DNA of 64,000 bases, taken from contig JAXHMG010000003.1 in assembly GCA_034521595.1 (NCBI GenBank), positions 1,312,001-1,376,000 on the forward strand, written 5' to 3'. Shown here piece by piece: positions 3,357-31,523 of the stretch (its first letter is position 1; the number at the start of each line of letters is the position of its first letter). This DNA is from Gemmatimonadota bacterium (GTDB taxonomy: Bacteria; Gemmatimonadota; Gemmatimonadetes; Longimicrobiales; Gaopeijiaceae). The notes under the pieces were generated by a model, which worked only from the letters and a program-made list of their open reading frames with translations, ran no database searches and had not been told where the DNA came from. The position numbers were made by a program, and so were the translations under genes.

Positions 3357-3361
3357 CAGCC

Positions 3362-7582: not shown

Positions 7583-7587
7583 GGTGA

Positions 7588-9498: not shown

Positions 9499-9504
9499 AA
9501 TGAC

Positions 9505-9714: not shown

Positions 9715-9719
9715 AGCTC

Positions 9720-12135: not shown

Positions 12136-12152
12136 CGGCGATCAGCTCCCGG

Positions 12153-13562: not shown

Positions 13563-13665
13563 CTCGGTACTCCCTTCGGCGTGGCACAGCCGGGTCCGCA
13601 CGCAAACCCGGACCTGCAAACTACGGTCCGCGAGCGATGTCGGCACGCATGGCGTGTCACCGCCG

Positions 13666-14706
13666 TCACCGGCCCCTCGAATCCCCCACCGCCCGGAAGT
13701 AACCCCGGAGATTGGACGGCCGATACGACGGATCCTCGTCCCACCGTCGTATGGCCGAAGGATGCAGCGTCTGCGATCGGTCGGGGCGAATGGGACGCTC
13801 GTGGCGGGGCGCCAGCCGGTACCACCCTACCCTGGAATTGTGGGCCTGCGCTGTCGGCTCTCCCTCCAACGGCCGCGCCGCGACGACGTCCGAGTCGAAG
13901 TGGAGACCCGCCAGCTCCGCGTTGTCCATCATCCACTGGAGCGTGATGTCCGACAAGCCGTCGTCCAGGTATCCGCCCCCGACGTCGCTGTGCACGCCGG
14001 GGAACCAGGTCTGGGACACGAGCTGGCCGGGCTTCGGCTTCTCGATCCAGAGCGTCGGCTCGAACGGGCCACGGCGCTCGTCGATGGCGAGTGCGTGGAA
14101 GGCGTACTCCACGGTGCCACTGAGCTCGCAATCGTGGAAATCCCGATTCCTCCGCGTGAGCGCGCGGAGACCGGTGAGGGGGATGCCCAGCGCCCCCACG
14201 GTGTCCCAGACGCCGATGCAGCGGATCGGGATCGACTCGGAGCCGCAGCACGAGTAGCTCGCACGGAAGCTGGTGGGCTGGTCGTCGTCCGGGTGGGTGC
14301 CGGAATCCTGGTACAGCTCGAGGGCGTCGACGTACATGCCGACGTGCTTGCGGTCGAGAATCCCGCACTTCCGGATCATTCCGCCCAAGCTCCGAGCGGT
14401 GTAGGCCCCCCTGCTGAACCCGAAGAGGTAGATCTCGTCGCCCGGCTCGTAGTTCGCGAGGAGGAAGCGATAGGCGTCGAAGATGTTGTCGCTCAGCCCC
14501 CCACCGAACGCCCCGCCGGTGAAGCGATCCAGCACGTTACCGGTGCCGACGCCCTGATCGTAGAAGACGATCTGCGCCACTCCGTCCGGGTCACGCTTGG
14601 CGACGCGGTACGCCAGCTTGACCACGTTCGTCGGGCAGAGTGTTCCGTCCTTCTGCTGGTCCGCCCGGTTCCAGGTCCCGTCGCAGCAGATGACGAGGCG
14701 TTTCAT
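13666..14706 (-). CDS. DUF2235 (Tle1-like) alpha/beta-hydrolase, putative phospholipase
   Basis: KRLVICCDGTWN, TNVVKL, YDQGVGT, FGFSRGAYTAR, IGVWDTVGALG, HALAIDERR, WFPGVHSDVGGGY. No signal peptide. Confidence 0.95.
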   Translation of the reverse strand: MKRLVICCDGTWNRADQQKDGTLCPTNVVKLAYRVAKRDPDGVAQIVFYDQGVGTGNVLDRFTGGAFGGGLSDNIFDAYRFLLANYEPGDEIYLFGFSRGAYTARSLGGMIRKCGILDRKHVGMYVDALELYQDSGTHPDDDQPTSFRASYSCCGSESIPIRCIGVWDTVGALGIPLTGLRALTRRNRDFHDCELSGTVEYAFHALAIDERRGPFEPTLWIEKPKPGQLVSQTWFPGVHSDVGGGYLDDGLSDITLQWMMDNAELAGLHFDSDVVAARPLEGEPTAQAHNSRVGWYRLAPRHERPIRPDRSQTLHPSAIRRWDEDPSYRPSNLRGYFRAVGDSRGR

Positions 14707-15049: not shown

Positions 15050-17278
15050 GTGCGTGTGACCGTCCGTATCGACGACGTCGTCGGCCGAAGCTCCTCGCGG
15101 GACGGCAGACCCTGGCTCTGGCCCGTCTTCTTCGCCGTGGACGACACCGCGTTGGCCGGCCTCCTGTCGGGGCGTCCCGAGGAAGAGGGCGTGCTGCATG
15201 CCCATCCCCCGGTCACGGTCGCGGCACGGTCGCCGAATCGGGGCGCTCGGCGTTCGACCCCGCCTCTGGCCCTCTGGTCGTTCGACCTCCGGACCGAAGT
15301 CCTGCGAAGCGAGACCGCCCTCGTGGGCGTGGCCGCGGTCCTGGAGCGAGGAGATCGGCCGTCCGAGGAGGCTCGCGACGCCGTGGACGAGCTGGTCGCG
15401 GGCCTCCGCCTGACCCTCGCCCGACACCTCGGCGGATCGCTGGGGCTGGGGAGCCTGCTGTCCGCGTTCGCGGGCGGTGGGATGGGAATGGACCCGTCGG
15501 CCGGGCTCGATCCGCCGGAAGGTGCCCTCTCCCTGGAAGATCTGGAACGGGGATCCGTCCCGACCCCCGAGTCCGGCCCCCTCGACCGGTTGGCTCAGGG
15601 GCCGGTGCTCGCGACCCTCCGCGGGCAGACCGCGGACATGGACCGCGAGCGCGCGCTGGGATTCTCGATCCTGTCGGGGCTGGTCGCCGATCCGGACTAC
15701 GAGGCCGAAAGGGCCTACGTCCGCCCGCCCCTGGTCTCCGGCTACCGACCGAACGAGCTCGGAGCGATCCCCGAGGACGGCGGCGGCGCACCACCGGACG
15801 ATCCGGGGTTCGGACGCGGGCCGCGTACGGGCGACCGCCCCGGAAGAACCCGCGGGGGACGCGGGACCCCGATCCGGCCCGACCTCGGACGCATCGTCGG
15901 CCGAATGCCTCCGGGGCTCCGGCGGAACGAGCGGCTCGGAATACGCGTTCCGCCCCGCATCGGCCGGCCGGTGCCTCTCCCGGACCCTTCGCCCACACCC
16001 GACCTGCCGCGACGCTTTCACGGCCTCCGGCTCGACCAGCCCGTGACCCTGCCCGAGCTGACCCGGGAAGGCGGCGCGGTCATCGGCTCCGGGTTCGCGT
16101 TCTGGACCCCAGCGGAGCTCGCCGAACCGGAGGCTCGAGGGTTCCGCACGCGCCTCCACGGCGAACGTGGCGCTCGGGTGTCGTTCGTCATGCGGGGAAC
16201 GGTGAGGGTCACCCCACGAGCGGAGGGCCGACCGACGGGTTGGAGCCGGGGGCGGCGGGGTGGCTCCCATCTGGTCGTCCCTTCGGAGGACGGCTCGATC
16301 TCGGTGTACCTGCGCGGGGCGGGCGCGGCCGAGCACGAAACCCTCTCCCTCGAGCCGGATGCGTTCCCGGTCGGTCGCATCTCGGGGGGCGCCCTCGGAA
16401 AACAGCACCTCATCGCTTGGCGCGACGCGGCGGGACGCATTCGGTCCGCCGAGCGGACCGGGGGTGGGTCCTGGGTACCGGCGACGGTCGTGGATCAGGA
16501 CGGCGCGGTCGGAGCGCCGACCCTCCTGGCCGACGCGGCCCGGAAGCGGTGGGCCTTGGCCTACGGCGCCGAAGGCGGGGGCGTCCACGTCGCGGTCTCC
16601 AGGGGACGACGGTGGAAGCGGATGGAGGTCGGCGAAGCGGGCCGCGAAGTCGAGCAGGTCGCCCTGGCAGCTCTTCCCGCGGGCGAGCGCGACAACGAGG
16701 GGCTGTTGTGGGCCGCCTGGGCCGGCGCGGACGGCACGCCCATGATGGCCAGCGAAACCCGTTCCGGGTCCTGGAAGGTGTCCGGGATCCGCGCGGCGGG
16801 AAGCTTGCCGCCGGTCGCCGGCGGGCCCCTCGCGCTCGCCGACCCCACCGGTCGCCTGCCGGCTCTGGCCTACCGGGCCCCCGACGGTCTGGTGCTCCTC
16901 CTTCCGTCCCGCGGACGATGGCGGGTGGAGCGCCCGAAGCTGCCGACGCTGCCTCGACCGGTCGGCGACATCGACGGCGTGACGATACCCGCCTGGAAGT
17001 CCGTCGCCCTGGGGTTCCGATCGGCGGACGGTGGCATTCACCTCGTCCTCCGGGACGGCGACGGCACCTGGCGACATGAGCCCCTCCGCAAGATTCCCGC
17101 CACGCCCGGAGGCGGCTCCGATCCCTGCCTCTGGGTAGCCGGGCGGAACCTCCATGTGGGCTGGCTCGACGAGCGCGGCCACGTATGGGAGGCGAGCCGC
17201 GCAGAAGACGGGACCTGGCGCTCGGCCGACATCGACGCGCTGTCGGACGCCTCCGAATCCGCCCGGGGCCGGTCATGA
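15050..17278 (+). CDS. Hypothetical protein (~742 aa) with a C-terminal Trp-rich beta-propeller (fucose-lectin/PLL-like repeats)
   Basis: RBS CAGGAGG then GTG at 15050. At least 6 repeats such as LIAWRDAAGRIRSAERTGGGSW, LGFRSADGGIHLVLRDGDGTW and VGWLDERGHVWEASRAEDGTW. The stop overlaps the next ATG (ATGA). Confidence 0.8.
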   Translation: MRVTVRIDDVVGRSSSRDGRPWLWPVFFAVDDTALAGLLSGRPEEEGVLHAHPPVTVAARSPNRGARRSTPPLALWSFDLRTEVLRSETALVGVAAVLERGDRPSEEARDAVDELVAGLRLTLARHLGGSLGLGSLLSAFAGGGMGMDPSAGLDPPEGALSLEDLERGSVPTPESGPLDRLAQGPVLATLRGQTADMDRERALGFSILSGLVADPDYEAERAYVRPPLVSGYRPNELGAIPEDGGGAPPDDPGFGRGPRTGDRPGRTRGGRGTPIRPDLGRIVGRMPPGLRRNERLGIRVPPRIGRPVPLPDPSPTPDLPRRFHGLRLDQPVTLPELTREGGAVIGSGFAFWTPAELAEPEARGFRTRLHGERGARVSFVMRGTVRVTPRAEGRPTGWSRGRRGGSHLVVPSEDGSISVYLRGAGAAEHETLSLEPDAFPVGRISGGALGKQHLIAWRDAAGRIRSAERTGGGSWVPATVVDQDGAVGAPTLLADAARKRWALAYGAEGGGVHVAVSRGRRWKRMEVGEAGREVEQVALAALPAGERDNEGLLWAAWAGADGTPMMASETRSGSWKVSGIRAAGSLPPVAGGPLALADPTGRLPALAYRAPDGLVLLLPSRGRWRVERPKLPTLPRPVGDIDGVTIPAWKSVALGFRSADGGIHLVLRDGDGTWRHEPLRKIPATPGGGSDPCLWVAGRNLHVGWLDERGHVWEASRAEDGTWRSADIDALSDASESARGRS

Positions 17279-20200
17279 CGGTGCTACGCGGCATCACGCT
17301 CCTCGACCTGATCCCCGAGCTCCCGGCGGGCGCTCAGGGCATCATCCCCGGCGACATTGGGCGCTTCCTCGAGCTGCTGAGCGTCGTGGAGCACGCCCCG
17401 CTCGCCAACGAGGGTTGGTTCACCCATGGTGGCGTGCTCCAGGGCGCCACCGATGCGGGACTCGAGCTGCCCGCCAACCTCCCGCTCCGGCTTCCGGGCC
17501 TCAACGCCGGCGTTCGCTTCCAGCTCTCGTGGCCCCGCGTGGAGCCCGTGGGCACGGATCCCGGGGACATGGAGGGGGCCCCCGACCGCTGGATCCTGGA
17601 CGTCTACGTGGGACGCATCGTCGTTCCCGTCCCCGGTCCGACGCCGGCGACACGGGTCCCGAGCGCCCCTGCTCAACCCCAGCATCTCGTCGCCGACCGG
17701 TCCCGCGACTGGGTGCAGATCACGGGAAGCGGCGTTCTCCGCATCACGCACGACGACAGCGGAACCGCGCTGGACCTCATCGCCCCGGCCGACCCCCTCG
17801 ATCCCGAGGAGCCCATCGGAGCGGTGCTGGAGCTGGGGCTGAACCCGCCCCACATGCTGTTCCACGAGAGCGGCTTCGGCATGAGCATCGGTCGGGTCGT
17901 CTGGGACGCGACCGGCAGCTACACGCCGCCCGAGATCGAGGCCCGGGGCCACGACGCCGCCTGGAAGGGCGTGTCGCTGGCCGAAGCGTCTCTGTACCTG
18001 CCGCATAACCTGCCGCTGTTCGGGGACGTCTCGTTCGGGGTCAAGGACGTGCTGTACGGACTCACCGACCCGGGCGGCGTGCAATTCGATGCCTACCTGG
18101 AGCTGGGCAATCCGCTCTCGTCGGGCGAGACCATCCAGTTCTTCCAGGAGCTCGAAGACGGAACCATCCATCATCCCTCCGACCCCGGGGCCGGCCTGAC
18201 CCGGACGGTCGTGCTCCACTCCTCGACGGAGGAGCGCGCACGGGTACGGGCCGTCCTCGATTCGGGGGCGGACGCGGTCTGGTCCTATCCGGGCGCGCGC
18301 AACGTCACCGCGCAGGGCACCGACTGGTTCACGGTGACGCCGGGCAACGAGCGGAGCTCGCTCACATTCCGCCGAGTCGCCACGAACGAGGCCGGGGAGA
18401 CGGTGTTCGGCCCGCAGATCACGTTCGTCTTCCGGAAGGAGGTCCCGGAACCGCAGCACGCGCCCAGGATCCAGGTCACGCAGGACGGGAACACGTGGGA
18501 CAACGTGGTCCACCTCTCGGGATCCACGGAAGCGTTGGCGGGCCTGGAGTTCACCGTCGTCTCGGACCCGAGCCTCACACCGGAGCGAAGGGAGCAGCTG
18601 CGATGGGACCTGGAGCACGACGGCGTCTCGCTGTCGGTGACCGGGGACTCGTTCACGCCGGCCACCTCGTTCCGCCCGGGCCTGCACGTGCTGGTGCTGC
18701 ACGACGAGGAGGACCGCACGCGGCGGCTCGAGATCGAGGGGATCGAGGAAGGGCGGCTGATCGTGGGCTCCGAGGGGGGACCGCGTGAGGTCGACGGAGG
18801 CACCGAAGGCGCCGTCGGGGTCACCGGCGTCGAAGCGTCGCACCATCTGGCGACCTACCACGAGTCGGGCGAGCGGACGGCTGCAAGCGGGGATCAGGCG
18901 TCCGTGAGCGGAGGGACGCTCACCGTCCCGGAGGGCGTCCTCGCCGAGGCCGCCCTCGACATCGGCAGCGGCGACGACCCGGACGCGGCGAACCCGGCGG
19001 AGGAGGAACCTCCCGTCCAGGCCGTCCGGATCTTCATGGTCTTCGAGGTGGATCAGTTCGCCGGCGAGTGGCGCCGGATCTCACCGGTACGGACGGACCC
19101 GGGCTGGGACCCGTTCGGGCCCCTGGAGCCCTACCCCGACCACGGCCCGACCGGCACGGGTCCCCGGGACCCGGTGGGCATCGCGTCCGGCGACGCCGTC
19201 TCCCCCTTCGTCCCCTCCGACCTTCTCCGGTGGGCGGAGAGCTTCCCGTCCGACACGGATTTCGTGGTCATCGGCCGCTGCGACGACCTCGGGCCGCAGC
19301 AGCTCAACGTGGACCTCGGTGCCGACCGGGCGCAGGCCGTGTTCGACCTGCTCACGTCGCCGTCCTCCGGATCGGAGCTCACGGCCATCGATCCCTCGCG
19401 GATCTACCACCGCGGGGAGCAGGAGAGCGCGTCCCTCCCCTCCGGCACCCCGGACATCCCGGCGGGCCGGCCCGGGCTGAGCGACCGTGCGGCCATCGAA
19501 TGGCGGATCCACGACGACTATCCGGACTCCGACACGAGCACCGGCTCGGGCTGGGGTCCGACCCGGGACGACCGCTCGGCCCGGCTGGAAGCGAGGTGCG
19601 TGGACGTCTACGCCATCCGGCCCGCCACGGACACCACCGTCGTTCCGCCGTCCGACGACGAATCCCGGGATCCCGCCCGCCGCCGCGCGCTGGTTCCGGG
19701 ACCGGACCGCACGACGTCCGAGGAGCCCGCCCCGCGCGACGTGGACCTGGGCTACCGGCTGCAGCTCCGCGCCAAGTGGGACAGCCCCACCATCGTCGAC
19801 AAGCGCGACTGGATCCCCGTGCTCGTGGAGATGACGCTCGACTGGCAGCGGGAGTCCCGCGCGCTCCCCGACGGCATGGGCGACGTGCAGCCGCAACCGG
19901 TCAGCGACGACGCCAACGCCGAGATCTGGCGGTTCCTCGGTCGCTTCGCCTACGACCCGCGGAGCGGGCAGACGGAGTTCACCGCGGCGCTGGACACGCC
20001 GGGCGACGAGAAGGGGATCTTCCACATCGTCTCTCCGGACGCCGACTCGGACGCCGACGAGGTCGTGGCGCTGGCGCTCGGACTCGGGCCAGCGCTCCTG
20101 GCGGGCGTGGACGCGGCGGAGCCCGGGAGCTCGGCCGTCCGCATCGGCGCGCTGTTGGCGGCCGTGGCCGGGGTGCTCGCCACCGACATCGTCAAGGACG

Positions 20201-23200
20201 GCAAGGCGACCGTCCAGAAGCTCGAGATCAAGCACCGCCAGCGGGACATCGACGACGCCGAAGGAAGCGTGAGCCGCGTGGTCATCGACTACACGGTCGA
20301 GCTGAACGTCGAGACCGACGCGCTCGGCGTCACGACGCGCAAGCCGGCGAAGTTCAGCTACAAGGGCGTCGGAATCGAGTACACGAACGACCCCGAGAAG
20401 GAGTGGTACGAGAACCTCGACATCGTCTACGAGGACGCGTCGTTCGAGATCGTCGACCCCGGCACCTGGGAGATCGACGGTCCCTTGGGCGAGCTTCTCG
20501 GCGTCAGCGCCGTACGGCTGGGCTCCGGCTCGGTCTGGGTCGAGACGGACCTGGACTTCGCGCTGGACCTGGGCGTCGTGGAGATCAGCTCCGCGACCGT
20601 GCGCATCACGGTCGAGCCCTCGGACGGGGTGACCGTGGACCTGCGAGGCCTGGCGGCCAAGGTCGACGTGCCGGGCGCCATCAAGGGCGGCGGCCAGCTC
20701 CAGATCGGGGACGGCGGCGACCTCGCGGCCATGATCGACCTCACGATCATCCCCGCCGAGATCCAGGCCGTGGCGGCGCTCAAGCTCGAGGGGCCCATGA
20801 CCCAGCTCGAGGCCGGCGTCCGCTTCGCCACGGCTCTCCCGCTCGCCGGCACGGGCTTCGGACTCTACGGGTTCAAGGGGCGGTTCGTATCCAACGGCAC
20901 CCGAGACCTCACCGGGCTCGCCGAGGACCCGGTGGAGCGCGAGCTCGGATGGTTCGCCAAGCCGGTCCTCGAGAAGTACGAGCCCAGCGTCGGCCAGTAC
21001 GCCATCGGGCTCGGCGCGATCGTCGGCACCATGCCGGACACGGGGTTCACGTTCAACGCGACCGGCATGGTCACGGTCGAATTCCCGGACGTCTCGGTGG
21101 TCTTCTCCATCGAGGCGAAGTTCCTGAACAAGCCGAGCCTCACCCCCAAGGAGGACAACGACGCCTCCGGCGGATCGGAGGTCAGCTTCGAGCTGATCGG
21201 GATCGTGGCGTTCGACTCGGCCGGCTTGGCGATCGCCGTGACCGGCGAGCTCGAGATCGAGAAGGTGCTGAGGGTCACGATCCCCATCGGGGCCTACTTC
21301 CCCTTCCAGTCGACCGGGGACGCGGCCTACCTCCGCATCGGCTCCGACGGGGCGGGCGGGCGCGCCGGCAGTCCGGTCACCATGACCGTGCTGCCGGACA
21401 TCCTCGATCTGAAGACCTGGTCGTTCTTCATGGTCGAGGAGAAGCAGCTCCTGGATCTGGGCGGCCGCGACGACCTGGACTTCCACGGGTTCTCCATCGG
21501 GTTCGGCGCAGGGTGGGAGTTCAAGTGGGGCGGCGGACCGATCTACCTGACGGTCTCGGCCGGCGTCCTGGTCGGCATGGGCACGCGCCCCATGACGGTG
21601 GTGGGCTCCATCTTCGTGTCGGGCGAGCTCTGGCTCGTGGTCGTGGGCCTCTCCATCAGCGGAGAGATCACGCTCCGGATCGTGCATCAGAACGGCGACA
21701 CGGACTGGTCGCTGACCGGGGAGTTCTGCGGCAAAGTCTCGTTCTTCTTTTTCTCCATCAAAGGCTGCGTCGAGTTCAAGCTGCCCGGGGACACCGCCGG
21801 AGACGCGCCTCCGCCCGATCCCGATCCGCTGGTGACCGGAGTCACCCTCACCGACAAGTTCGTCCGCGTCATCGCCCAGGCGAGCGATGTCACGGCGGGT
21901 GACGCCGTCCTACCGGAGTCTCTGGCGTGGCCCGACGTCGCGCCCACGATCCACTTCTCCCACCGGGTGATGCCGAACCTGCCTCCGGGCGGCTTCGAGC
22001 CCGCGCCCTCGGGCGGGTTCCCGGGGGAGGACTGGTCCGGCACGTCCAAGCTGAAGTTCCGGTTCCGCCTGGACGCGGTGGTCCTGGAGCTGGCCGACGG
22101 GACGGCCGTCGACGTCTCGGGCTGGCCGTCCGTGTGGTGGCAGCCGGCGTTCCGGGCGAGCGTGCCCGAGTCAGGCGACACGCCGTCCTCCGACCACGAG
22201 GGCTGGGACCTGGCCCTGCTCCACTGGGACCCGAGCCCCTGGCGCCGTCCGCTCACGAACGGCGGTGAGGGAATCGAGGCGGATCCCGCCGACGCGGTCC
22301 GCAACCTCTGCGAGCCCGCGCCGGAGCCCTCGCGCCACTGCACGCTCGGCCAGGACGGTGTGCGCCAGGACGTGGACCGGGTCGAGTTCGCGAGCGCGGC
22401 CGGCGGGACGCTTCCGTATCCGTCCTACTTCTTCGTGGATGGCCGGGAGGGATTCGGCGGCCTCGACCTCGAGGCGGTCGTCGCCCTGGCGGACGTGGTC
22501 GGAATGGGATTCGTCCCCGGCTCGCTCCAACCGCTTCCGGGGTCGCTGTCGCTTCCAGGTGTCCCGCCCGCGCTGACGGAAGCCTTCCGCTTCCCGTACC
22601 TGACCCGGGGCGGCGCCATCGCCGGCTCCCTGGGAATGACCGGGACCTTCCGGCCCTCGGTGGTCGATCCGGACCTCGTGCTGGCCATGTGCATCGATGT
22701 TCCGGAGCTCGAGCGCACCGTCGAGCGGTGCGTCGACTTCGACCGGCTCCAGCCGCACCGGAGCCTCGGACCCTCCATCACCCACGAGGACGTGGTCTTC
22801 ACCGACCGCGGCGGGCACCTGCGGACGACCGACTCCCTTCCGGCGGGAGCGCCGGACGGCCGGAGCGAGCTCCGCTTCACCTCGAAGGGGCTCGACGTCG
22901 CCCTCCCCGAGGTCTGTGACCGTGTGAGCCTGACCGTGGCCTATCAGGAACACGGTCCCATCCACGCGATCGCGTTCGACGCGGACGGCCAGCGCCTGGA
23001 CCAGGTCACGGGCCCGACGACCCCCAATGCGGCGACCACGATCTCCGTCGAGTCCCCGGGAATCACCCGGGTGGTCGTCACGGGCGGTTTCGGCACGGGC
23101 ATGCTCCAGGAGGTCTGCTACCGCTTCCGACAGGTCGCCGATCGGAAGGCCATCGCCGAGCGGATCGTGGCACACCTGACGGAGCCGGCGACCTATGCAC

Positions 23201-24783
23201 GTCGGGTCACGCGTCCCCTGCTGCCGCGGGTCTTCGGCGACCGCAACGACGACCCCGAGGATCCGACCCGCGACGAATGGGAGGCGGACGTCCTCGACGT
23301 GGCGGTGGGCGACGCGCGCGCCTGTGTCTATATGCGTTATACGGCCCCGGATCCGGAGCACCGCTATCGAAGCTTCACCGTGCTCCCCTTCCCTTCGCTG
23401 GAGCTCTCCCTGGTCAGCGTGTGCGGCATCAGCGCCGACGCCCAGGACGCCCACGACGCGGACGAGGACGCGCGCGAGGACGGGCAGGACGCCTGGAACG
23501 ACGCGGCCGAGGGCGACGAGGAGGACCGCGTCGCGCTCCTCGACGCCGACACGGAATACGCCGTCCGGATCGACTACTCGTACGCCATCTGGCAAGGGGA
23601 GGAAGGACGCGACCTGCCGCCCGAGATCGATGCCGCGGACTTCGACGCCGCGGAAGCCGACTGGCCCGACGGCGTCACCTTCGGCTCGACGAGCCAGCGC
23701 TTCGGCTTCCGGACAGCGCCCGAGGCGCCGATTCCCGAAGCGGACCTGATGACCTTCGACGCGCAGGACACGTTCGAGCCCCGGGGGCTCGTGCGGTATC
23801 TGCGCGGATTCGACCCCGTGTCGGATCGGTTCACGCACTTCCTGGACGATCTCCTCCTGGTCCACTTCGACGTGGAATGGGTGCGGACGCTCCTCGAGCG
23901 GTACGGCTACGAGATGCGCCTGACCGTGAAGCGGACCGATCCGAAGCCGCCGGACCCGGGCACCGGACCCCTCACCGACCTGTCGGTCCCCTCCGCGTGG
24001 ACCTGGGAGCCGCTACCGGTCTGGATGCGGAACGAGGGCGACATCCGGGTCGCGGTCGCGGCCGACGAGTCCGAGTGCGTCGAGCCGCCCGTTTCGGGCG
24101 GGACGGCAGCCGTATCGGCGGAGCTGGACCCACGGGCCGAGTACGACCTCGAGCTCACCGCGGTTCCGCTCGGCGCGGGCGACGACGAGCCGGGAGTCCA
24201 CATCTCGCGCACCCACTTCCGGACGTCCCGGTACGGGGCCGCCCCCGAGCTCGTCGAGGCGCTCGGCCTGAGCGATCCGGGGGCTCCGTACGCGCCGCCG
24301 CCGACCGAAGCATTGGTCACGGGACGGGCCACGCCCGGCACCGGGGAGCCCGACGATGTGGCGCTGGACGAATGCCTGGCCGCGATGGGCCTCGACCCGT
24401 TCCCGCTTCCGGACACGCCCCGGACGGTGCTGCTGTGGATCGACGACGGGGGCTGGCGGCTCGCCGGCATTCTCCTGGACGCGGACGAATCGCTCTTCCG
24501 TGCCCCACGCCTCGAGGAGGTCGTCTCCACCGCAGACACGGGCTCGGAGCCGGACCCACGCCTCGAGGTGGTCGAAGCCCAAGTCGGTGGGACCACATTC
24601 GAGGTCCGGCACCGCAACGAGGCCGGCACCCGCGTGCTCCTCGCGCCGACGTCGCCGGCGGCCCTCAGCCACCCGGACGGGACGCTGCCCCTCGTCGTCC
24701 GGTTCAGGGATCGCGGCGCGGTGCTGGAAGGCGCGCGCACGCTGACGACGCTTCCCTACATCGTGATCAAGGAGTCGGTATGA
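17275..24783 (+). CDS. Giant beta-rich protein (~2502 aa) with an embedded OmpA-like domain and a DUF6603-like region
   Basis: Uninterrupted 7.5 kb ORF with ATGA overlaps at both ends. VIGRCDDLG...NVDLGADRAQAV...RGE...RCVDV is OmpA_C-like (~19260-19615). A long Gly/aromatic amphipathic strand array (FGLYGFKGRFVSN, YAIGLGAIVGT, GFSIGFGAGWEF) spans ~20200-21780. The DUF6603 call is from memory of the family. Confidence 0.85.
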   Translation: MTVLRGITLLDLIPELPAGAQGIIPGDIGRFLELLSVVEHAPLANEGWFTHGGVLQGATDAGLELPANLPLRLPGLNAGVRFQLSWPRVEPVGTDPGDMEGAPDRWILDVYVGRIVVPVPGPTPATRVPSAPAQPQHLVADRSRDWVQITGSGVLRITHDDSGTALDLIAPADPLDPEEPIGAVLELGLNPPHMLFHESGFGMSIGRVVWDATGSYTPPEIEARGHDAAWKGVSLAEASLYLPHNLPLFGDVSFGVKDVLYGLTDPGGVQFDAYLELGNPLSSGETIQFFQELEDGTIHHPSDPGAGLTRTVVLHSSTEERARVRAVLDSGADAVWSYPGARNVTAQGTDWFTVTPGNERSSLTFRRVATNEAGETVFGPQITFVFRKEVPEPQHAPRIQVTQDGNTWDNVVHLSGSTEALAGLEFTVVSDPSLTPERREQLRWDLEHDGVSLSVTGDSFTPATSFRPGLHVLVLHDEEDRTRRLEIEGIEEGRLIVGSEGGPREVDGGTEGAVGVTGVEASHHLATYHESGERTAASGDQASVSGGTLTVPEGVLAEAALDIGSGDDPDAANPAEEEPPVQAVRIFMVFEVDQFAGEWRRISPVRTDPGWDPFGPLEPYPDHGPTGTGPRDPVGIASGDAVSPFVPSDLLRWAESFPSDTDFVVIGRCDDLGPQQLNVDLGADRAQAVFDLLTSPSSGSELTAIDPSRIYHRGEQESASLPSGTPDIPAGRPGLSDRAAIEWRIHDDYPDSDTSTGSGWGPTRDDRSARLEARCVDVYAIRPATDTTVVPPSDDESRDPARRRALVPGPDRTTSEEPAPRDVDLGYRLQLRAKWDSPTIVDKRDWIPVLVEMTLDWQRESRALPDGMGDVQPQPVSDDANAEIWRFLGRFAYDPRSGQTEFTAALDTPGDEKGIFHIVSPDADSDADEVVALALGLGPALLAGVDAAEPGSSAVRIGALLAAVAGVLATDIVKDGKATVQKLEIKHRQRDIDDAEGSVSRVVIDYTVELNVETDALGVTTRKPAKFSYKGVGIEYTNDPEKEWYENLDIVYEDASFEIVDPGTWEIDGPLGELLGVSAVRLGSGSVWVETDLDFALDLGVVEISSATVRITVEPSDGVTVDLRGLAAKVDVPGAIKGGGQLQIGDGGDLAAMIDLTIIPAEIQAVAALKLEGPMTQLEAGVRFATALPLAGTGFGLYGFKGRFVSNGTRDLTGLAEDPVERELGWFAKPVLEKYEPSVGQYAIGLGAIVGTMPDTGFTFNATGMVTVEFPDVSVVFSIEAKFLNKPSLTPKEDNDASGGSEVSFELIGIVAFDSAGLAIAVTGELEIEKVLRVTIPIGAYFPFQSTGDAAYLRIGSDGAGGRAGSPVTMTVLPDILDLKTWSFFMVEEKQLLDLGGRDDLDFHGFSIGFGAGWEFKWGGGPIYLTVSAGVLVGMGTRPMTVVGSIFVSGELWLVVVGLSISGEITLRIVHQNGDTDWSLTGEFCGKVSFFFFSIKGCVEFKLPGDTAGDAPPPDPDPLVTGVTLTDKFVRVIAQASDVTAGDAVLPESLAWPDVAPTIHFSHRVMPNLPPGGFEPAPSGGFPGEDWSGTSKLKFRFRLDAVVLELADGTAVDVSGWPSVWWQPAFRASVPESGDTPSSDHEGWDLALLHWDPSPWRRPLTNGGEGIEADPADAVRNLCEPAPEPSRHCTLGQDGVRQDVDRVEFASAAGGTLPYPSYFFVDGREGFGGLDLEAVVALADVVGMGFVPGSLQPLPGSLSLPGVPPALTEAFRFPYLTRGGAIAGSLGMTGTFRPSVVDPDLVLAMCIDVPELERTVERCVDFDRLQPHRSLGPSITHEDVVFTDRGGHLRTTDSLPAGAPDGRSELRFTSKGLDVALPEVCDRVSLTVAYQEHGPIHAIAFDADGQRLDQVTGPTTPNAATTISVESPGITRVVVTGGFGTGMLQEVCYRFRQVADRKAIAERIVAHLTEPATYARRVTRPLLPRVFGDRNDDPEDPTRDEWEADVLDVAVGDARACVYMRYTAPDPEHRYRSFTVLPFPSLELSLVSVCGISADAQDAHDADEDAREDGQDAWNDAAEGDEEDRVALLDADTEYAVRIDYSYAIWQGEEGRDLPPEIDAADFDAAEADWPDGVTFGSTSQRFGFRTAPEAPIPEADLMTFDAQDTFEPRGLVRYLRGFDPVSDRFTHFLDDLLLVHFDVEWVRTLLERYGYEMRLTVKRTDPKPPDPGTGPLTDLSVPSAWTWEPLPVWMRNEGDIRVAVAADESECVEPPVSGGTAAVSAELDPRAEYDLELTAVPLGAGDDEPGVHISRTHFRTSRYGAAPELVEALGLSDPGAPYAPPPTEALVTGRATPGTGEPDDVALDECLAAMGLDPFPLPDTPRTVLLWIDDGGWRLAGILLDADESLFRAPRLEEVVSTADTGSEPDPRLEVVEAQVGGTTFEVRHRNEAGTRVLLAPTSPAALSHPDGTLPLVVRFRDRGAVLEGARTLTTLPYIVIKESV

Positions 24784-27700
24784 AGCCGCTGCCGCCCAGC
24801 TGGGCCATGGGCGCACACGCCCTGGACGGCGCCGGAGATCCTCACCTCCAACCGGGGGCCCACTTCCGCCTGGCCACCGCGCCCGTGCTGGGGCTTCCGC
24901 TCCGTCCACTGCTCGTCTACAAGCACCGCCTCCATCCCGGCGAGGCGAACGAGGCCATGCAGACGGAGATCCGGTGGACGGACAGTGCCGGACGCACGCT
25001 CACGCCCCCCTTCGACGTGACGCCCGACAACCCGGTAACCGGGCACCTGCCCGTGAGCCAGACGCGCCGCTGCATCTGGATCGAAGTCGCGGCCGAATCC
25101 CCGTCCGACCGGGCGAGAAATCCCGGGGGGCTTACCCGGAATCTCGACGCCGACATCCGCCGCACCATCGACCGGGTCGACCTCGACGCCGTGTCGGGCC
25201 CGATCCGGCTCCGGAGAGACATCCTCGACCTCGTACGCCGCCTCCCCGACTTCGTCTTCCGTCCCGGGCTCAAGGTCGACGCGTTCCTGGAATCGATTCA
25301 GGGCATGTCGTTCCTCGGCTCGCGGACCGAGGCGCCCTACGTGCTGAGCGCGTCGTCGCTCTCGGGCGTGGTGGTGAGCGGCACCGGACGGGTCCAAGGG
25401 GCGCGTTGGCTGGAGTGGGGACGGACCCGGACCAAGCGAGCCCTCTGGCGGGTGCTGCCGATGCCGGTCTCCTCGGGGCCTCGGCACCTCGCTCCGTCCG
25501 ACGCCCGCGACCAGGCGCTGGAGCGGGTGCGGCGAGGCGCGCCGCGGCGATACGGGCTCCACGACCGGCCGGAGACGGCCAACGCCGCGAGCGCTCCGGC
25601 CGCCACCGTCGGCGCGGAGGAACGGCGGGTGACCCGGCTCAGCGAGGATCTCGAGCCCAGCCTCGAAGCGCTGGTGAACGACACCTCGGCAGCTCCTCTG
25701 GAGCTCGGGATCGATCAGGAGCTGGACCAGAGCGAGTCGGACCAGGTCGCCGCCGCCCGTTATCCCGCGTTGGGGACGGTGCTCCTGTCCGCGCTCGATC
25801 CCGGAGTGGCCCGCTGGCTCGGCTTCATGGACCGGGACGAGGACGACACGGCGCCGGTGGGGAGCATCGTGATCTACACCATCCGGGGGTTCTGGTCCGT
25901 CGACTGGAACGCCCTGTCGCTATGGCGGAAGCTCGCCTTCTTTCCGGCCGCTTCGGCGGGAATCGTGTCGTCCTCCCAGCCGCCCGACGGCTCGGTGCCC
26001 TTCGACATCCCCCGCAGATCTCCGGACGGCACCCCCGTATTCGACCTGGAGGTGCCCGCGGTCGCGACGATCGGCGTGCCACCGGACGCGCCGACCGCCC
26101 CGGTTCTCGAGCCTCCGGTAGCGCCCGAGGGTGCGCCGGACGCGGATCCCATGGGCGTCTGGATGCCGGGCACGCCGGGAAGCTACCGCCGTCACGTCCA
26201 GATGCCCGTTCGCGACCTCGTGCCCGGCGCCTGTCTCGCCGTGGCGCGGGAGCACGACGGGACCCGGGAGCGGCTGAACCGCACCGTCCTGGTCGATCCC
26301 GGCACCGGCGAGGAGCGCGCCATGAGCCTCCACGCCGCGCTCCCCGGCAGCGCGGATTCCGCCGATCAGGGCTCGATCAGCGACCGGGAAGCCCACCCGG
26401 ACGCCACGGAGTACCACGCGGCTCAGGCCGACTGGTTCGGTCGTTGGAGCGCCTGGCGTGCGCGGACCATCGGCCCCAAGGAGCCGCCCGCGCCCCCCAT
26501 CCCGGTGATCCAGCCTCGATACGAGATGGCCGAGACGCCGGACCCGATGCACGACGACCCGCTCTGGGGGCGCCTGAGCGTCCGTGTGCCCGTACCTCCG
26601 GCGACGGACCTCGCGCCCGGCTCGCACCCCCTGGACCGGATCCGCATCGAAGGCACCGTGGCCGGTGCCACGACGGAGTCGTTCGCGGTCGAAGAGCCCG
26701 TTCCCTCGGCGCCCGGGCCCCATCTCGAAGTGGAGATTCCGGTCCCGACGGGCTCCGGCGGAACGGCGGCGTTCCTGGCCCGGACGGAGATCGCGACGGC
26801 CACCATGACCGCCCGGTGGATCGACGCCGATGGCGGCCTCTCCGAGCCGACGGAGCCTCGAGAGCTCGACCTGGTCGATCCGCGCCCTCCGGAGCCCGTG
26901 ACCATCGACCCGACGCTCACGTACACCGCCCGGCCCGACGCGACCGGGCGCGCGCTCGCGCGCATCGGTTGGACGGCCTCGTCCACGCAGCACGGCTTCC
27001 GCGTCTACTTCAGCGACGAAACGCGGCTGGTCGAGCGGATGGAGTCGGTCGCGGCGGGTTCCGGCTCCGACGCGTCCACGGCCCAAGCGTTCCTCGACGA
27101 TCTGGCGGCGGCCGGGGGACCGGCCGAGCGCGCCGCGGCCTTCACCGCGCCGGGGCGCCCGGAGCAGTTCCGGCGGGACTGGTTCGAGAACCTCACGGGC
27201 GACCTGCTCGTGGGCTCGGGAGACATGCGCTTCCAGCACGACCTCTCCGCGTCGCTCCGCTCACTGGCGTTCTATCGCGTGGTGGCCGTCAGCGAGACGA
27301 ACGTGGAGTCGGAGTTCGCCGGCTCCCCGCTCGTCCCGCGGGCCGTCCCCAACAGCGGGCCGCCGCCCCGGCCGATGATCGAGGTCGTCCCGCGCGACCG
27401 CATCCCCGACGACGTGACCGTGGGAGAGCAGGAAGTCCTCCTTCGCGTCCGGGTGGTCCGCGGCGCGCAGCCCGTCTCGCGGGTCCGGCTCCGCCGGAGC
27501 TCTCGTGGGGGCGGAGACGCGCTGCGGATGCCCGTGGCGCTCGAGACGGACGTGACCCCCTCCGAGCCGGGGCCTGACGGAATCGTGACCGTGGACCTGG
27601 TCGACACCGGAGCGTACAACCACGAGCCCGGCCGGATTCTGCGTCCCTTCAGCAACTACTTCTGGCGGGTCGAGGTCCAGGCGCCGAACGAGCCCGGCAG

Positions 27701-28100
27701 CTCCCTCCCGGGCGAATGGAGCCCGCCCAGCGACGCGACCTCGACCCTTCTCGTCGGGCCACGACCCGGCCCCGTGACGGGGCTCGCTGCCGCCGCCAGC
27801 CCTCCACCCGACCCCGTGGTCACCCTTACCTGGGAGCACCCGGAGCCGCTCCTGCCCGGCGGGATCGGCGGCTTCCGCTTCGAGATCCTGCGGCGGCAGG
27901 ACGGTCGCGAAAAGGTCGTGGGCCAGCTGGCCGCGGACGCGGACCCCGCCGCGGGTGGCCGAAGCGGACCCGGGGACTCGTTCACCTGGACGGAGACGCT
28001 CGAAGGCGCCGACCCCGCGGAGGACCTCGAGTACAGGGTGGTGACCCTGGACCCACTCGGCCGCCGTGGGCCGGTCTCGTCCCCCGTCAGCCTTCCCTGA
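24780..28100 (+). CDS. Large protein (~1106 aa) with fibronectin type III/Ig-like modules
   Basis: GGAG RBS and ATG 24780 overlapping the upstream stop. Fn3-like module ends: YHAAQADWFGRWS, FYRVVAVSETNVES, YFWRVEVQA...GEWSPPS, YRVVTLDPLGRRGPVS. Confidence 0.82.
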   Translation: MKPLPPSWAMGAHALDGAGDPHLQPGAHFRLATAPVLGLPLRPLLVYKHRLHPGEANEAMQTEIRWTDSAGRTLTPPFDVTPDNPVTGHLPVSQTRRCIWIEVAAESPSDRARNPGGLTRNLDADIRRTIDRVDLDAVSGPIRLRRDILDLVRRLPDFVFRPGLKVDAFLESIQGMSFLGSRTEAPYVLSASSLSGVVVSGTGRVQGARWLEWGRTRTKRALWRVLPMPVSSGPRHLAPSDARDQALERVRRGAPRRYGLHDRPETANAASAPAATVGAEERRVTRLSEDLEPSLEALVNDTSAAPLELGIDQELDQSESDQVAAARYPALGTVLLSALDPGVARWLGFMDRDEDDTAPVGSIVIYTIRGFWSVDWNALSLWRKLAFFPAASAGIVSSSQPPDGSVPFDIPRRSPDGTPVFDLEVPAVATIGVPPDAPTAPVLEPPVAPEGAPDADPMGVWMPGTPGSYRRHVQMPVRDLVPGACLAVAREHDGTRERLNRTVLVDPGTGEERAMSLHAALPGSADSADQGSISDREAHPDATEYHAAQADWFGRWSAWRARTIGPKEPPAPPIPVIQPRYEMAETPDPMHDDPLWGRLSVRVPVPPATDLAPGSHPLDRIRIEGTVAGATTESFAVEEPVPSAPGPHLEVEIPVPTGSGGTAAFLARTEIATATMTARWIDADGGLSEPTEPRELDLVDPRPPEPVTIDPTLTYTARPDATGRALARIGWTASSTQHGFRVYFSDETRLVERMESVAAGSGSDASTAQAFLDDLAAAGGPAERAAAFTAPGRPEQFRRDWFENLTGDLLVGSGDMRFQHDLSASLRSLAFYRVVAVSETNVESEFAGSPLVPRAVPNSGPPPRPMIEVVPRDRIPDDVTVGEQEVLLRVRVVRGAQPVSRVRLRRSSRGGGDALRMPVALETDVTPSEPGPDGIVTVDLVDTGAYNHEPGRILRPFSNYFWRVEVQAPNEPGSSLPGEWSPPSDATSTLLVGPRPGPVTGLAAAASPPPDPVVTLTWEHPEPLLPGGIGGFRFEILRRQDGREKVVGQLAADADPAAGGRSGPGDSFTWTETLEGADPAEDLEYRVVTLDPLGRRGPVSSPVSLP

Positions 28101-28109: not shown

Positions 28110-31100
28110 ATGCACACGCTGACCCCCGATCCATCCACCCTCGGGATCCAGACGCCGCAGATCGGGCCCTGGTTCTCCTCCGACACCGTCGAGTTGCCGG
28201 TCGCCGACGACCGCCTCGCCGTGCCGCTCACGCTCGACGGCGGTGTGGCCTGGCTCCCTCCGGCGGGCGGGCTGCTCTCCTTCCGCATCGCGACGCCCGA
28301 CCGACCTCGGCGCTTGGCGGGCTTGCGCGACGGCGCGGGCGAGCCGGCCTTCGACGACGGTCACCTGGTCGCCGAGTTCCGCTTGCTCCCCGAGGTGGAG
28401 GCGCGCATCGATCGGCTGATGCGTGTGCTTCCGACCCTCGCCGGCGACGACGCCGCGGGCGAAGGCCGCACGCGACCCCGCGTTCGCACGTTCGCCCTGG
28501 AGATCATGACGGCGTCCCCGTCGTGGACGATGCTCGAGTCGCTCCTGCCGGCGACCTTCGGCCTCCCGGGTAGCTCGACCGCGGAGAACGTGGCGCACGT
28601 CGGGCTGACGGGGACGGCGCCGCTCGGCAACGGCCCCAAGCCCATGGGGGACCTGAAGCGAACCGGGAAGCTCATCGGCGCCTTCGAGCAGCTGCTCCAC
28701 TTCCCGACCAGCACGGACGTGAAGCTCTGGGCATTCGACCACCGCGGCCGGGCCCTGGACCCCGGAGCGGTGGCCTGCTGGTGGCTCTTCCTGGCCACAC
28801 ACGCCGACAACGGCTTCGACGGCCTCTGGGCGGAAGGGCTGGAAACGGGAGACCAGCGGACGGCCCCGATCGCCACGGATGCGGACGAGCTCGTCCTGCA
28901 CCTCGTGGATCCCCAGGGCGGCGCTCCGCTGGAGCCGACTCTGGCCCGCATCGACGGCGCCAACCTCGACGGAACCGGCACCGTCCGTCGCCGGGGAGCC
29001 GAGGACGAGGCGGCGACGCTGTCCTTTACCGACCCACCCACCGATGACCCCGACGATCTACCGGTGCCGCGCATGGCGCTCCTGCCCGACGGCGTGTTCG
29101 GGGAGACGGTCTCCGTATGGCCCACGGGCACGGTGGACCCGATCCTCCGTCGCGACTTCGCGAGGGTCGCCGCCCTCTCCGTAGAGCTCGCCCTGACCGG
29201 CCAGCGCCGTACGCCCGCGCCGGGCTCCACCCCCACGGCCGCGGACGAGCGGCGCGCCGAGGATCAGGCCAGGACGTCCACGCGTGTATCCGTCGCACGG
29301 GCCGAGCGGACGGACGCCCTACTCGACACGCACGAGGAGGTCATCGCGGGGTTTCGGGAGGTCTTCGAGGGGCCGGAAGCGACGGACCTGGCCACCGGCG
29401 TGCTCGAGGCCGGATGGGGCCCGATCACGCCCGCGCTTCCGGACGAGGATCCTCCGACGGCCGCCCCCGACTTCACCGTAGAGCCGCTGCAGGGCGGAGG
29501 CGTGGACGACGGTGGGACGGTCGTCGATCAGAAGGCGCTGGTTACCTCGACGCTCGACGCATCTCTGGAAGGCGCCTGGGTGAGGGTCTGGACGCAGGGC
29601 TTCGACCGGGAGCGGGCGGAGCACTTCAAGATGGACGGGGGCGCCGGCCGCGTCGCCGACGACGGGACGGTGCGCCTGGTCACGCGACTGCCCGACGGAG
29701 CCGTGGATCCGTCCACGCCCATGGGCATGGACGTCATGGTGGTCACCGACCGGGGCGCACGGCACTTCGCCGACGTGCGCTTCGACCGGCCGGCCCCCGT
29801 CGGAGGTGACCCCGCGGCGCTCACCGAGTCGGACGGCACGCCCCGATCCGGCACGACCAGCGGGCTCGACCTCGGCTCGGCGGTCGTCGTGTGTGAGACG
29901 GGCGTCTCCCACGCGAGCCTTCCGCTCCCCGACGACTCCGTGCCCTCCGGATCGTCCCTCGTCGCCCTGACATCGCCGCCGACATTGGTGGATGCCTCGA
30001 CGCTGCCCACGGCGGCCCGCGTAGCCGCGCTCGGGGGCGTGCTCGAACCCGAAGACCGCGTGCGCCTCGTCGAGCCGGCCTTCCAGTCGAGTCCCAGGGG
30101 CGACGCCGCCGAGGACCTCGCCCCCGCCACCGTCCATGCGACGGATCGGAGGGACAGCTCGGCGTGGGAGTCCGGCTTCCCCCTGCCCTCCATGGAGCGT
30201 CTCGAGTCCGTGGCGTCCAATGTGGGCGATGCCGAGGGCCGGGGGGCCGTCGGCGCCGTGCCCGCTCTTTCGCGCTACCATGACTTCCTGCATCACCGCC
30301 ACGGCAATCCGAATGCTCCCGCCGCGCCGGACACGCACGGGACCGGGGTGAGGGTGCGCGGGCCGGCAGCCCGCCTGCTCGCCGAGTACGCCCGGGATCG
30401 CACGAGCGAGAGCACGTTGGACCTCGTCGCCCGAGCGGCCACGCCCGTGCCGGAACCGTCCGACGTGGACGGCGACGCCCTCTGGATCGCCGGCCTCCGA
30501 ACGGTGGCCGCGGGGGTGGAGGGCGAGGTCGGGCTCGGCGTGCTGGCGGACGCGAGCATCGCCGGCTTCGACCCCTACCCGCTGGGAGACGCGTGGACGA
30601 GCGTCCAGGCCTGGATCGAGGACAAGATCGGCACGCTCCCCTCGGAGCTGGACGACACCACCGCAGCGGTGGACAGCATCGTGCGCGCGCTCGACCGTCG
30701 CTTCCTGGCCGCGACGCGGGGAGCGCGCGAGGGCGCCACGTCCCTCCAGGCCGCCCTCGGCAGGGCCCAGGACATCGTCTACATCGAGACTCCCGCCTTC
30801 GACGCCCGCGCGTTCGACGACGGCGACGACAGGCTCGACCTCTGGTCCACACTGGTCCAGCGGATGAAGGACAATCGAGCGCTCCACCTCGTGATCTGTG
30901 CGCCCGTATGGTTGCTCGACGGTGCTCCGGCACCGCTTCAGAGGGTACGGGACGCCATCATGAACGAGGCTCTGTCAGCACTTCAGGAAGGCTCCACCGG
31001 AACGGCCGTCCCGACGCTGGAGGAACGCGTGGCCACCTTCTCTCCGGCGGCGGGCCCCGGACGCTCCCTGCGCATCGCATCCACCTCCGTCGTGGTCGAC

Positions 31101-31523
31101 GACGCCTACGCCTTCACCGGCTCGACCCACCTATGGCGGAGGGGCCTGAGCTTCGACTCGTCGTACGCGGTCGCCGCATTCGACGAGCGCGTCCGGGACG
31201 GCCGGCCCGCGGCCGTGACCAGCTTCCGGAGGCGGTTGCTGGCCGGACGCCTCGGGGTCGAGCTCGGGGGCGTCCCCGACGACCCCGTGCAGATCGTGCG
31301 GGCGGTCCGGGACCTCTCTTCCCGGGGCGGCTTCGGCCGGCTCGCCGCCGAGCGGATCCGGGCACCCGACCCCACGCTCACCACCTCCACGGATCCGTCG
31401 ACGATCAGCGACGTCGATCTCTGGGATCCCGACGGGAGCCCGCCGGCGAGCTTCAACCCCGTGGAGTGGATCGCCGGCATGCTGACCACCGTGCAGACCG
31501 AGGAGCTCACACCGGCGCCGTAG
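28110..31523 (+). CDS. Large protein (1137 aa) with a C-terminal degenerate phospholipase D fold
   Basis: GAGGA RBS; starts 9 nt after the previous stop. PLD-like segments HGTGVRVRGPAA, AQDIVYIETPAF and RIASTSVVVDDAYAFTGSTHLWRRGLSFDSS, in which the His and Lys of HxKxxxxD are absent. Confidence 0.82.
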   Translation: MHTLTPDPSTLGIQTPQIGPWFSSDTVELPVADDRLAVPLTLDGGVAWLPPAGGLLSFRIATPDRPRRLAGLRDGAGEPAFDDGHLVAEFRLLPEVEARIDRLMRVLPTLAGDDAAGEGRTRPRVRTFALEIMTASPSWTMLESLLPATFGLPGSSTAENVAHVGLTGTAPLGNGPKPMGDLKRTGKLIGAFEQLLHFPTSTDVKLWAFDHRGRALDPGAVACWWLFLATHADNGFDGLWAEGLETGDQRTAPIATDADELVLHLVDPQGGAPLEPTLARIDGANLDGTGTVRRRGAEDEAATLSFTDPPTDDPDDLPVPRMALLPDGVFGETVSVWPTGTVDPILRRDFARVAALSVELALTGQRRTPAPGSTPTAADERRAEDQARTSTRVSVARAERTDALLDTHEEVIAGFREVFEGPEATDLATGVLEAGWGPITPALPDEDPPTAAPDFTVEPLQGGGVDDGGTVVDQKALVTSTLDASLEGAWVRVWTQGFDRERAEHFKMDGGAGRVADDGTVRLVTRLPDGAVDPSTPMGMDVMVVTDRGARHFADVRFDRPAPVGGDPAALTESDGTPRSGTTSGLDLGSAVVVCETGVSHASLPLPDDSVPSGSSLVALTSPPTLVDASTLPTAARVAALGGVLEPEDRVRLVEPAFQSSPRGDAAEDLAPATVHATDRRDSSAWESGFPLPSMERLESVASNVGDAEGRGAVGAVPALSRYHDFLHHRHGNPNAPAAPDTHGTGVRVRGPAARLLAEYARDRTSESTLDLVARAATPVPEPSDVDGDALWIAGLRTVAAGVEGEVGLGVLADASIAGFDPYPLGDAWTSVQAWIEDKIGTLPSELDDTTAAVDSIVRALDRRFLAATRGAREGATSLQAALGRAQDIVYIETPAFDARAFDDGDDRLDLWSTLVQRMKDNRALHLVICAPVWLLDGAPAPLQRVRDAIMNEALSALQEGSTGTAVPTLEERVATFSPAAGPGRSLRIASTSVVVDDAYAFTGSTHLWRRGLSFDSSYAVAAFDERVRDGRPAAVTSFRRRLLAGRLGVELGGVPDDPVQIVRAVRDLSSRGGFGRLAAERIRAPDPTLTTSTDPSTISDVDLWDPDGSPPASFNPVEWIAGMLTTVQTEELTPAP

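Follow-up and report, generated by a model that had tools for sequence, protein, structure and literature searches.

The DNA analysed here is a stretch of 64,000 nucleotides from a bacterium of the phylum Gemmatimonadota (contig JAXHMG010000003.1, positions 1,312,001 to 1,376,000 of the forward strand), referred to below as the window, whose coordinates are used unless another locus is named. It contains three consecutive genes on the + strand which we call big, dn1 and dn2. The first, big (17275..24783, +), encodes 2502 amino acids from an ATG at 17275, inside an open reading frame (ORF) that spans 17185-24783 on the + strand. The second, dn1 (24780..28100, +), encodes 1106 amino acids; its ATG overlaps the stop codon of big (ATGA) and is preceded by AAGGAG. 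The third, dn2 (28110..31523, +), encodes 1137 amino acids and starts 10 nucleotides past the end of dn1. This arrangement was compared among loci from Sphingomonadales, Anaeromyxobacter, Chloroflexia, metagenomes and one genome of the class to which the host belongs: wherever the sequence extends beyond big (14 of 14 loci), dn1 comes next, and in all 8 loci of sufficient length dn2 comes after dn1. Our best guess is that big encodes the core subunit of a set, big-dn1-dn2, that is uncharacterised and has spread horizontally, and which in this subfamily has a variable fourth gene ahead of it.

The G+C content of the window is 0.65-0.74 and, because it is so high, long spurious ORFs are abundant. 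The possibility that the big frame is such an artefact of a high-GC genome was ruled out by its G+C content at third codon positions (GC3) of about 0.9, which stays between 0.88 and 0.96 over the entire gene length, together with the conservation of big across phyla. A first-pass annotation of this DNA, made from its letters and ORFs, had proposed a protein of about 2500 residues; with GC3 and relatives in agreement, this protein is real, and the four peptides quoted there as strands are found at 20530-20613, 20680-20709, 21187-21258 and 21598-21675.

The family is large and widely scattered. We found 132 homologues of the full-length type at E ≤ 1e-3, in many lineages, and for the central domain alone 904 representative clusters (50% identity) at E ≤ 1e-3, 365 of these at E ≤ 1e-30. 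The names of their sources include Myxococcales, Gammaproteobacteria, Sphingomonadales, Chloroflexia and several Actinomycetota. For homologues of big and of its partner, the source names include Serinicoccus, Propionicimonas, Ornithinimicrobium, Planotetraspora and Herbidospora, all genera of Actinomycetota that are monoderm. The host genome is diderm, with four Omp85 matches above the cut-off. Close to home the set is rare: it was detected in 3 of 401 sampled genomes of the host phylum and in none of 69 from the host family. No Pfam or NCBIfam family was matched by big, and neither PADLOC nor PHROGs gave a match for big, dn1, dn2 or the fourth gene. To our knowledge, there is no publication on the big family.

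None of the three proteins carries a visible export signal. The N-terminus of big reads MTVLRGITLLDLIPELPAGAQG, and no signal peptide was found in it by eye and by hydropathy, the two means applied, no signal-peptide predictor having been run; no 19-residue window with a mean hydropathy of at least 1.6 occurs before residue 927. The only hydrophobic helical segments in the whole protein are a hairpin at residues 927-973 and a weaker stretch at residues 1729-1747.

The centre of big is a predicted giant amphipathic antiparallel beta-sheet domain (20191..21786, +; residues 973-1504, best modelled at about 1120-1500). Just N-terminal of it lie two hydrophobic helices (20050..20181, +; residues 926-969), apparent from hydropathy, from the model and from the conserved consensus. 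Between residues 822 and 1502, the period-2 hydrophobic moment exceeds the threshold in 19.3% of 9-residue windows, versus 8.8 +/- 2.1% in shuffled sequences, and none of 300 shuffles of the same residues reaches the observed share. The alternating strand pattern that the first-pass annotation had pointed to thus exceeds chance. Block by block, the signal is high at residues 1001-1200 and 1301-1500, low at 901-1000 and 1201-1300, and raised at 1-100 and 201-300. The pattern had also been described as a continuous run from position 19740, which it is not: residues 841-925 or so are modelled with low confidence, residues 926-969 are the helix pair, and the blocks 901-1000 and 1201-1300 show little period-2 signal.

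An AlphaFold2 model of residues 841-1566 was built from a trimmed 21-sequence alignment (A3). Its mean predicted local distance difference test score (pLDDT) is 73.2 and its predicted TM-score (pTM) 0.53, with pLDDT values of 80-94 at residues ~1120-1500. The start of the model (residues ~841-925) is poorly defined. Two helices follow at residues 926-943 and 953-969 (residues 86-103 and 113-129 of the modelled fragment), coinciding with the hydropathy segments 927-948 and 951-973. After the helices the model consists of some 30 antiparallel strands, mostly 9-18 residues in length, with mainly tight turns between them. Strand limits were taken from the model for 25 strands and the two faces of each strand were compared in a 37-sequence family alignment (A1). 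The hydrophobic face has a mean hydropathy of 2.16 and 6% charged residues, the opposite face a mean hydropathy of -0.74 and 29% charged residues; for 15 of the 25 strands, none of the 37 sequences has a charged residue on this hydrophobic side. The amphipathic strand array is real and conserved. Something has to shield its hydrophobic face, be it lipid, a second sheet or another protein, and because a very large amphipathic sheet keeps this face across the family, contact with lipid or a membrane is a reasonable reading of the modelled sheet.

Structural comparison leads to membrane barrels. A Foldseek search of the PDB with the central model gave 10 matches at E ≤ 1e-3, all of them giant outer-membrane barrels (SlpA, PapC, LptD, FimD), with TM-scores of 0.11-0.24; the first is SlpA (8ae1; E 1e-4, TM-score 0.19). 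The best 50 VIA structural neighbours are likewise closed single-walled membrane barrels, poorly superposed, with no sandwiches or solenoids among them. The root-mean-square deviation (rmsd) of the matches is high, 8.5-13 Å, and the curvature or closure of the sheet therefore differs from that of the matched barrels. Among viral structures (BFVD) the central domain has only matches of low TM-score (≤ 0.20), and sequence and profile searches of the PDB with it (A2) returned nothing meaningful. Mean-field co-variation was computed from 253 sequences, with an effective number of sequences (Neff) of 177 over 530 columns. It backs hairpins between strands adjacent in sequence, 13 of 30 adjacent strand pairs having at least 2 contacts in the top 400. 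It revealed no convincing ladder closing a barrel; for the single candidate, strands 296-304 with 635-650, the signal of 2 contacts does not rise above noise.

Upstream of the sheet, big contains a predicted domain of the OmpA-C peptidoglycan-binding type (19192..19524, +; residues ~640-750) with the motif FVVIGRCDDLG...N..L...RA. When a profile of the N-terminal 840 residues (A5, 12 sequences) was searched against the PDB, the C-terminal domain of OprF (5u1h) was matched at E 8e-6 and eight OmpA-type chains at E ≤ 0.01; a single sequence by itself gave E 0.91. PF00691 is weakly matched at the corresponding position by 11 of 19 homologues, none of which reaches the 27.2-bit cut-off. D671, N678 and R685 are invariant in the 12 sequences, within the motif GRxCDxG...N..L...RA, and in OmpA-C domains a conserved Asp and Arg touch the peptide stem. 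The assignment of residues ~640-750 as a peptidoglycan-binding-type domain is a prediction, and a supported one. The remainder of big is made up of an N-terminal conserved domain (17275..18174, +; residues 1-300) and a C-terminal conserved region (21973..24783, +; residues 1567-2502, i.e. 936 residues). The former is mostly beta, as the first-pass annotation had it, and has no fold match, the fold search yielding nothing above noise; the likeness to the centre proposed at the same time does not extend to sequence kinship (hhalign probability 0.5%). The latter holds several invariant Cys residues (alignment A7) and has no known match: the profile search of the PDB with A7 was empty, and no shorter stand-alone homologue was found.

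The partner proteins are equally short of recognisable families. For dn1, no Pfam family was matched, apart from one weak Big_6 match in one homologue, and searches of the PDB with dn1 and with dn2 (the latter by single sequence and by profile A4) gave nothing meaningful. By eye, the C-terminus of dn1 appears to contain stretches like fibronectin type III (FN3) or immunoglobulin (Ig) domains. For dn2, 163 homologues were found at E ≤ 1e-3, two of which are named phospholipase D (PLD)-like by their sources, and 29 of the 30 Atlas feature neighbours of its last ~300 residues belong to the PLDc/PLDc_2 set, with a top score of 0.96. The catalytic motif of PLD enzymes is HxK(x)4D(x)6G(G/S)xN (HKD). 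At the aligned positions of dn2 (27 sequences) one reads (A/S)-x-T992 ... D997 ... G1004-x-x-H1007: neither the His nor the Lys occurs there, the Asp and Gly are retained, and T992, D997, G1004 and H1007 are invariant. Pfam assigned a PLD family to this end in 0 of 19 sequences, no PDB profile match was obtained, and hhalign against the genome's own PLD gave a probability of 4.1%, with the motif at the start of the domain alone aligned. Residues ~860-1030 of dn2 are, as judged from these patterns, probably a PLD-derived domain that is not a standard phosphodiesterase.

A distant relative suggests how the parts may cooperate. In locus L027, a 2020-aa protein with the central domain is followed by an ORF, at least 1517 aa long, with weak similarity to dn1 as well as to the C-terminal region of big; because matches to the two are joined there in one ORF, the C-terminal region of big and dn1 may work together. 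In L027 (from genome G251, of the same phylum as the host; 3698-5926 on the - strand, 9294-20000 on the + strand), Ku and LigD genes lie next to a patatin gene upstream. In the Chloroflexia metagenome-assembled genome of locus L008 (7635-21248, +), all three genes are split into several frames, by frameshifts or sequencing errors.

The fourth gene (15050..17278, +) encodes about 742 aa from a GTG at 15050; its stop codon and the ATG of big overlap. No Pfam family was matched by it; by eye, its C-terminal repeats look propeller-like. Its protein is similar to that of the gene upstream of big in L028 (BLASTP E 4e-5 over 39 aa), and its N-terminal motif (RVT...WPV[FW]FAVD) is found upstream of big in 3 of 16 loci, namely the window and its two nearest relatives, L028 and L010.

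On the other side of the fourth gene, and divergent to the set, lies a Tle1-like (DUF2235) lipase-fold gene (13666..14706, -; PF09994 E 1.3e-88) with a GFSRG motif and no leader. The first-pass annotation had invoked two neighbouring lipase-fold genes; this one was recovered by Pfam, the second was not found. No gene for a type VI secretion system sheath (VipB) was detected in the host genome. Neither the Tle1-like gene nor any other gene flanking the set in the window recurs beside the set in 13 other loci, and an all-against-all comparison of flanking ORFs yielded no further conserved gene beyond close relatives. The Tle1-like gene is possibly an accessory, outside the conserved part of the set. 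Elsewhere, a divergent patatin-like phospholipase gene lies upstream of the set in L027 and a cell-wall hydrolase gene directly upstream in L007; other flanks are unrelated (a DUF2339 membrane protein, a beta-helix protein, a pyruvate carboxylase, a glycosyltransferase, and SbcC-like plus DUF3323/DUF2399 genes). Right after the set in the window are two adjacent ORFs with Gate domains (nucleoside recognition, PF07670; 31633-33223, +), a pairing not conserved at this place elsewhere. Further out, a gene of 497 aa (12153-13646, -) contains both halves of the copper type II ascorbate-dependent monooxygenase fold (PF01082 E 1.6e-7, PF03712 E 9e-9), a mostly eukaryotic family, and adjoins an SRAP gene (11479-12135). 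At 3362-9495 (-), a 635-aa poly-ferredoxin is followed by a protein of 1405 aa in which an NrfD-type membrane subunit is fused to a molybdopterin oxidoreductase.

A link between big and DUF6603 (PF20248), a family for which a Pfam scan had been proposed in the first-pass annotation, is a weak lead. Big itself has no match. What speaks for the link is faint: two Atlas neighbours of the central domain by language-model features (scores 0.94 and 0.93) are clusters in which PF20248 occurs in 12% and 17% of members, and 1 of 19 homologues matches the start of the model with 17.4 bits (E 0.0018), below the gathering score of 27 bits. On the other side, PF20248 was absent from 17 further relatives and from the genome, control genomes also giving none, so that across big, 36 homologues and the whole genome the cut-off of the model is nowhere reached. 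No paper naming DUF6603 or PF20248 was found in a search of the full-text literature, which did not extend to subscription journals.

We tentatively favour a reading in which the set is a leaderless, horizontally mobile machine, the hydrophobic sheet face of its core meeting a membrane and its OmpA-like domain holding peptidoglycan. The hydrophobic face would be turned to lipid, and the sheet would enter or wrap the membrane as a barrel-like wall while the OmpA-like domain grips the cell wall. Dn1 and dn2 would supply Ig/FN3-like parts for binding and, facing phospholipid, a degenerate PLD-like part. Because the set is leaderless, patchy and present in bacteria with one and with two membranes, it would act on an envelope via a non-classical route, which could be release or delivery to another cell, in a toxin-like or translocon-like manner. 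By analogy, big may work somewhat like a protein that forms a membrane beta-barrel. Several points weigh against this reading. The data on the sheet leave its hydrophobic face outward, as in a membrane barrel, or inward, as in a groove or core. The barrel matches superpose badly and may merely reflect a long beta-meander, and the model from which they derive is of medium quality and built from 21 sequences. A peptidoglycan-binding domain in a leaderless protein is without a shown route to the wall. The lipase neighbours are not conserved across loci, and the PLD-like reading of dn2 is unsupported by Pfam, by the PDB profile search and by hhalign. Lastly, the function proposed for the set is a reading of sequence and predicted structure.

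A possible, somewhat less probable, explanation is that the set forms a soluble scaffold. The hydrophobic face would then be buried, in a large sandwich, in a barrel filled by the two helices and other domains, or against dn1 and dn2, and the product would be a large proteinaceous particle or surface structure with no direct contact with lipid. That all proteins of the set are leaderless would suit this explanation, as would the restriction of hydrophobic helices in big to the hairpin and the one weaker stretch; big has about 1900 further residues that, together with dn1 and dn2, could provide the cover. A few co-variation pairs join strands distant in sequence (335-349 with 464-473, for example), which could mean face-to-face packing, but at this Neff and number of columns long-range co-variation is at noise level. 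Moreover, the top structural neighbours are single-walled barrels and neither sandwiches nor solenoids, and the domain has few helices with which to fill such a surface.

The first-pass annotation had proposed kinship with AsmA, TamB and VPS13, i.e. an open "taco" carrying lipid. Bacterial AsmA-like proteins consist of an N-terminal transmembrane helix, their anchor in the inner membrane, and a Chorein-N domain of 100-150 residues, followed by beta-taco repeats; the unit of repeating beta-groove (RBG) proteins is five strands plus a loop, and the AsmA-like family is conserved in didermic bacteria and organelles, according to the passages of PMC10345924 on which we draw. Like AsmA-like and other RBG proteins (TamB, YhdP, YdbH; VPS13, ATG2), big is very large and has a long antiparallel amphipathic array with one hydrophobic face. 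Unlike them, it lacks an N-terminal anchor helix, its model shows no regular five-strand-plus-loop unit in its secondary structure, and its gene has no Omp85 partner of the kind that TamA is at the outer membrane. No Chorein-N, AsmA or TamB signature was found in big (Pfam, NCBIfam) or in 36 homologues (19 + 17). The host genome does encode two canonical TamB proteins (ORFs of 1565 and 1835 aa; G000:C3:2292341-2301075 and 1401779-1407971), each beside an Omp85-family gene, whereas no Omp85 gene adjoins the three-gene set. Aligned by hhalign with the TamB domain of the same genome, the central profile (A3) gave a probability of 0.1%, very remote homology being beyond the reach of this test. A structural comparison with TamB, YhdP and VPS13 had been proposed; the fold searches turned up barrels, and there is no TamB, VPS13, ATG2, RBG or Lpt chain among the best 50 VIA neighbours, an absence which, as the tool warns, does not exclude them. 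Because anchor helix, signatures and profile match are all absent, because homologues occur in monoderm genera and because the set is rare in the phylum and thus accessory, membership of big in the AsmA/TamB/VPS13 family is not supported.

A lipid conduit might still have arisen independently, as a convergent repeating beta-groove in which an open taco moves phospholipids between membranes, or between a membrane and another compartment. We regard this as unlikely. The conserved, charge-free hydrophobic face on about 25 long strands is what a groove requires, the poor fit to closed barrels (rmsd ~10 Å) would suit an open sheet, and the PLD-like lead in dn2 and the lipase-fold neighbours in two contexts point the same way. 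Most of the features that define AsmA-like proteins in the parts of PMC10345924 used here are nevertheless missing from big, no adjoining Omp85 gene accompanies it as one does each of the two real TamB genes, and no RBG or Lpt protein figures among its best 50 structural neighbours, with the reservation just given. The family is also present in monoderm Actinomycetota. The scarcity of the set in the phylum (3 of 401 genomes) is unlike a housekeeping lipid transporter, and we do not think that the set is a housekeeping lipid bridge.

We consider it more improbable still that the set serves in defence against phages or plasmids, or in conflict of a similar kind, with the sheet protein as an effector that would harm the cell's own membrane upon infection. 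Its patchy, horizontally spread distribution would fit, and a membrane-active effector would suit an amphipathic sheet. In addition, the set of locus L015 stands just downstream of an SbcC/RAD50-like gene (1398 aa) and a DUF3323/DUF2399 gene (1797-7219, +), which we take to be JetC and JetD of Wadjet and which may be defence-island context. However, this is the one defence-type neighbour among 16 loci, none of the four proteins is covered by a PADLOC model, domains of a sensor, NTPase or nuclease cannot be recognised, and the PLD-like domain of dn2 is without the catalytic His and Lys. Finally, it is very improbable that big is simply one of the host's outer-membrane tethers, which, like OmpA or Deinococcus SlpA, would connect that membrane with peptidoglycan through a wall-binding domain and a large barrel: the host is diderm by its Omp85 proteins, the succession of an OmpA-like domain and a barrel-like sheet recalls such tethers and SlpA is the first Foldseek match, but without a signal peptide there is no route to the BAM machinery, the family occurs in monoderm Actinomycetota, the TM-score to SlpA is 0.19 and the set is absent from 69 of the 69 searched genomes of the host family.

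From large outer-membrane barrels (OccD and other porins, VDAC/Tom40, ushers, LptD, SlpA) and from OmpA-type tethers, big is set apart by an rmsd of 8.5-13 Å at TM-scores of at most 0.24, by the lack of a signal peptide, by the position of the sheet inside a 2502-aa multidomain protein and by a family that extends to monoderms. There is a likeness, in organisation only, to the Tc (ABC) toxin complexes, which are encoded by three adjacent genes for leaderless giants of about 2500, 1100 and 1100 aa, are patchy in their spread, and have a helical channel in TcA. The trio resembles them in gene number and adjacency, in the sizes and leaderless state of its products and in its patchy distribution; it differs in that the putative membrane part of big is a beta-sheet, and we claim no homology. 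The signatures of TcA, TcB and TcC (VRP1/TcA-TcB-binding, SpvB/TcdB-mid, RHS repeats) were not seen, no Pfam family being matched at E ≤ 0.01 in big, dn1 or dn2. A more ambitious version of the membrane-machine reading, which we think rather unlikely as a whole, would make the trio a new leaderless three-component membrane-inserting machine, Tc-like in size and organisation, with a giant barrel-like sheet and its own peptidoglycan anchor, spread by horizontal transfer in monoderms and diderms and directed against envelopes with exchangeable enzyme neighbours (lipases, wall hydrolases).

Neither curated families nor defence models, phage families or solved structures account for the trio, and we therefore place it outside the known kinds of system. 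The fixed three-gene set amounts to about 4700 residues that match none of these in sequence, with the sole exception of the OmpA-like domain. For the annotation of other giant proteins, the case of big means that long amphipathic strand arrays alone are insufficient for filing a protein among the relatives of AsmA, TamB and VPS13. The records of relatives include strains of cultured species (Sphingobium lactosutens, Sandarakinorhabdus, Polymorphobacter), so direct tests are feasible. For a leaderless bacterial protein, the central sheet is among the largest amphipathic beta-structures to be expected; should it insert into a membrane or carry lipid, it would represent a new way to build a membrane-active machine outside Sec/BAM.

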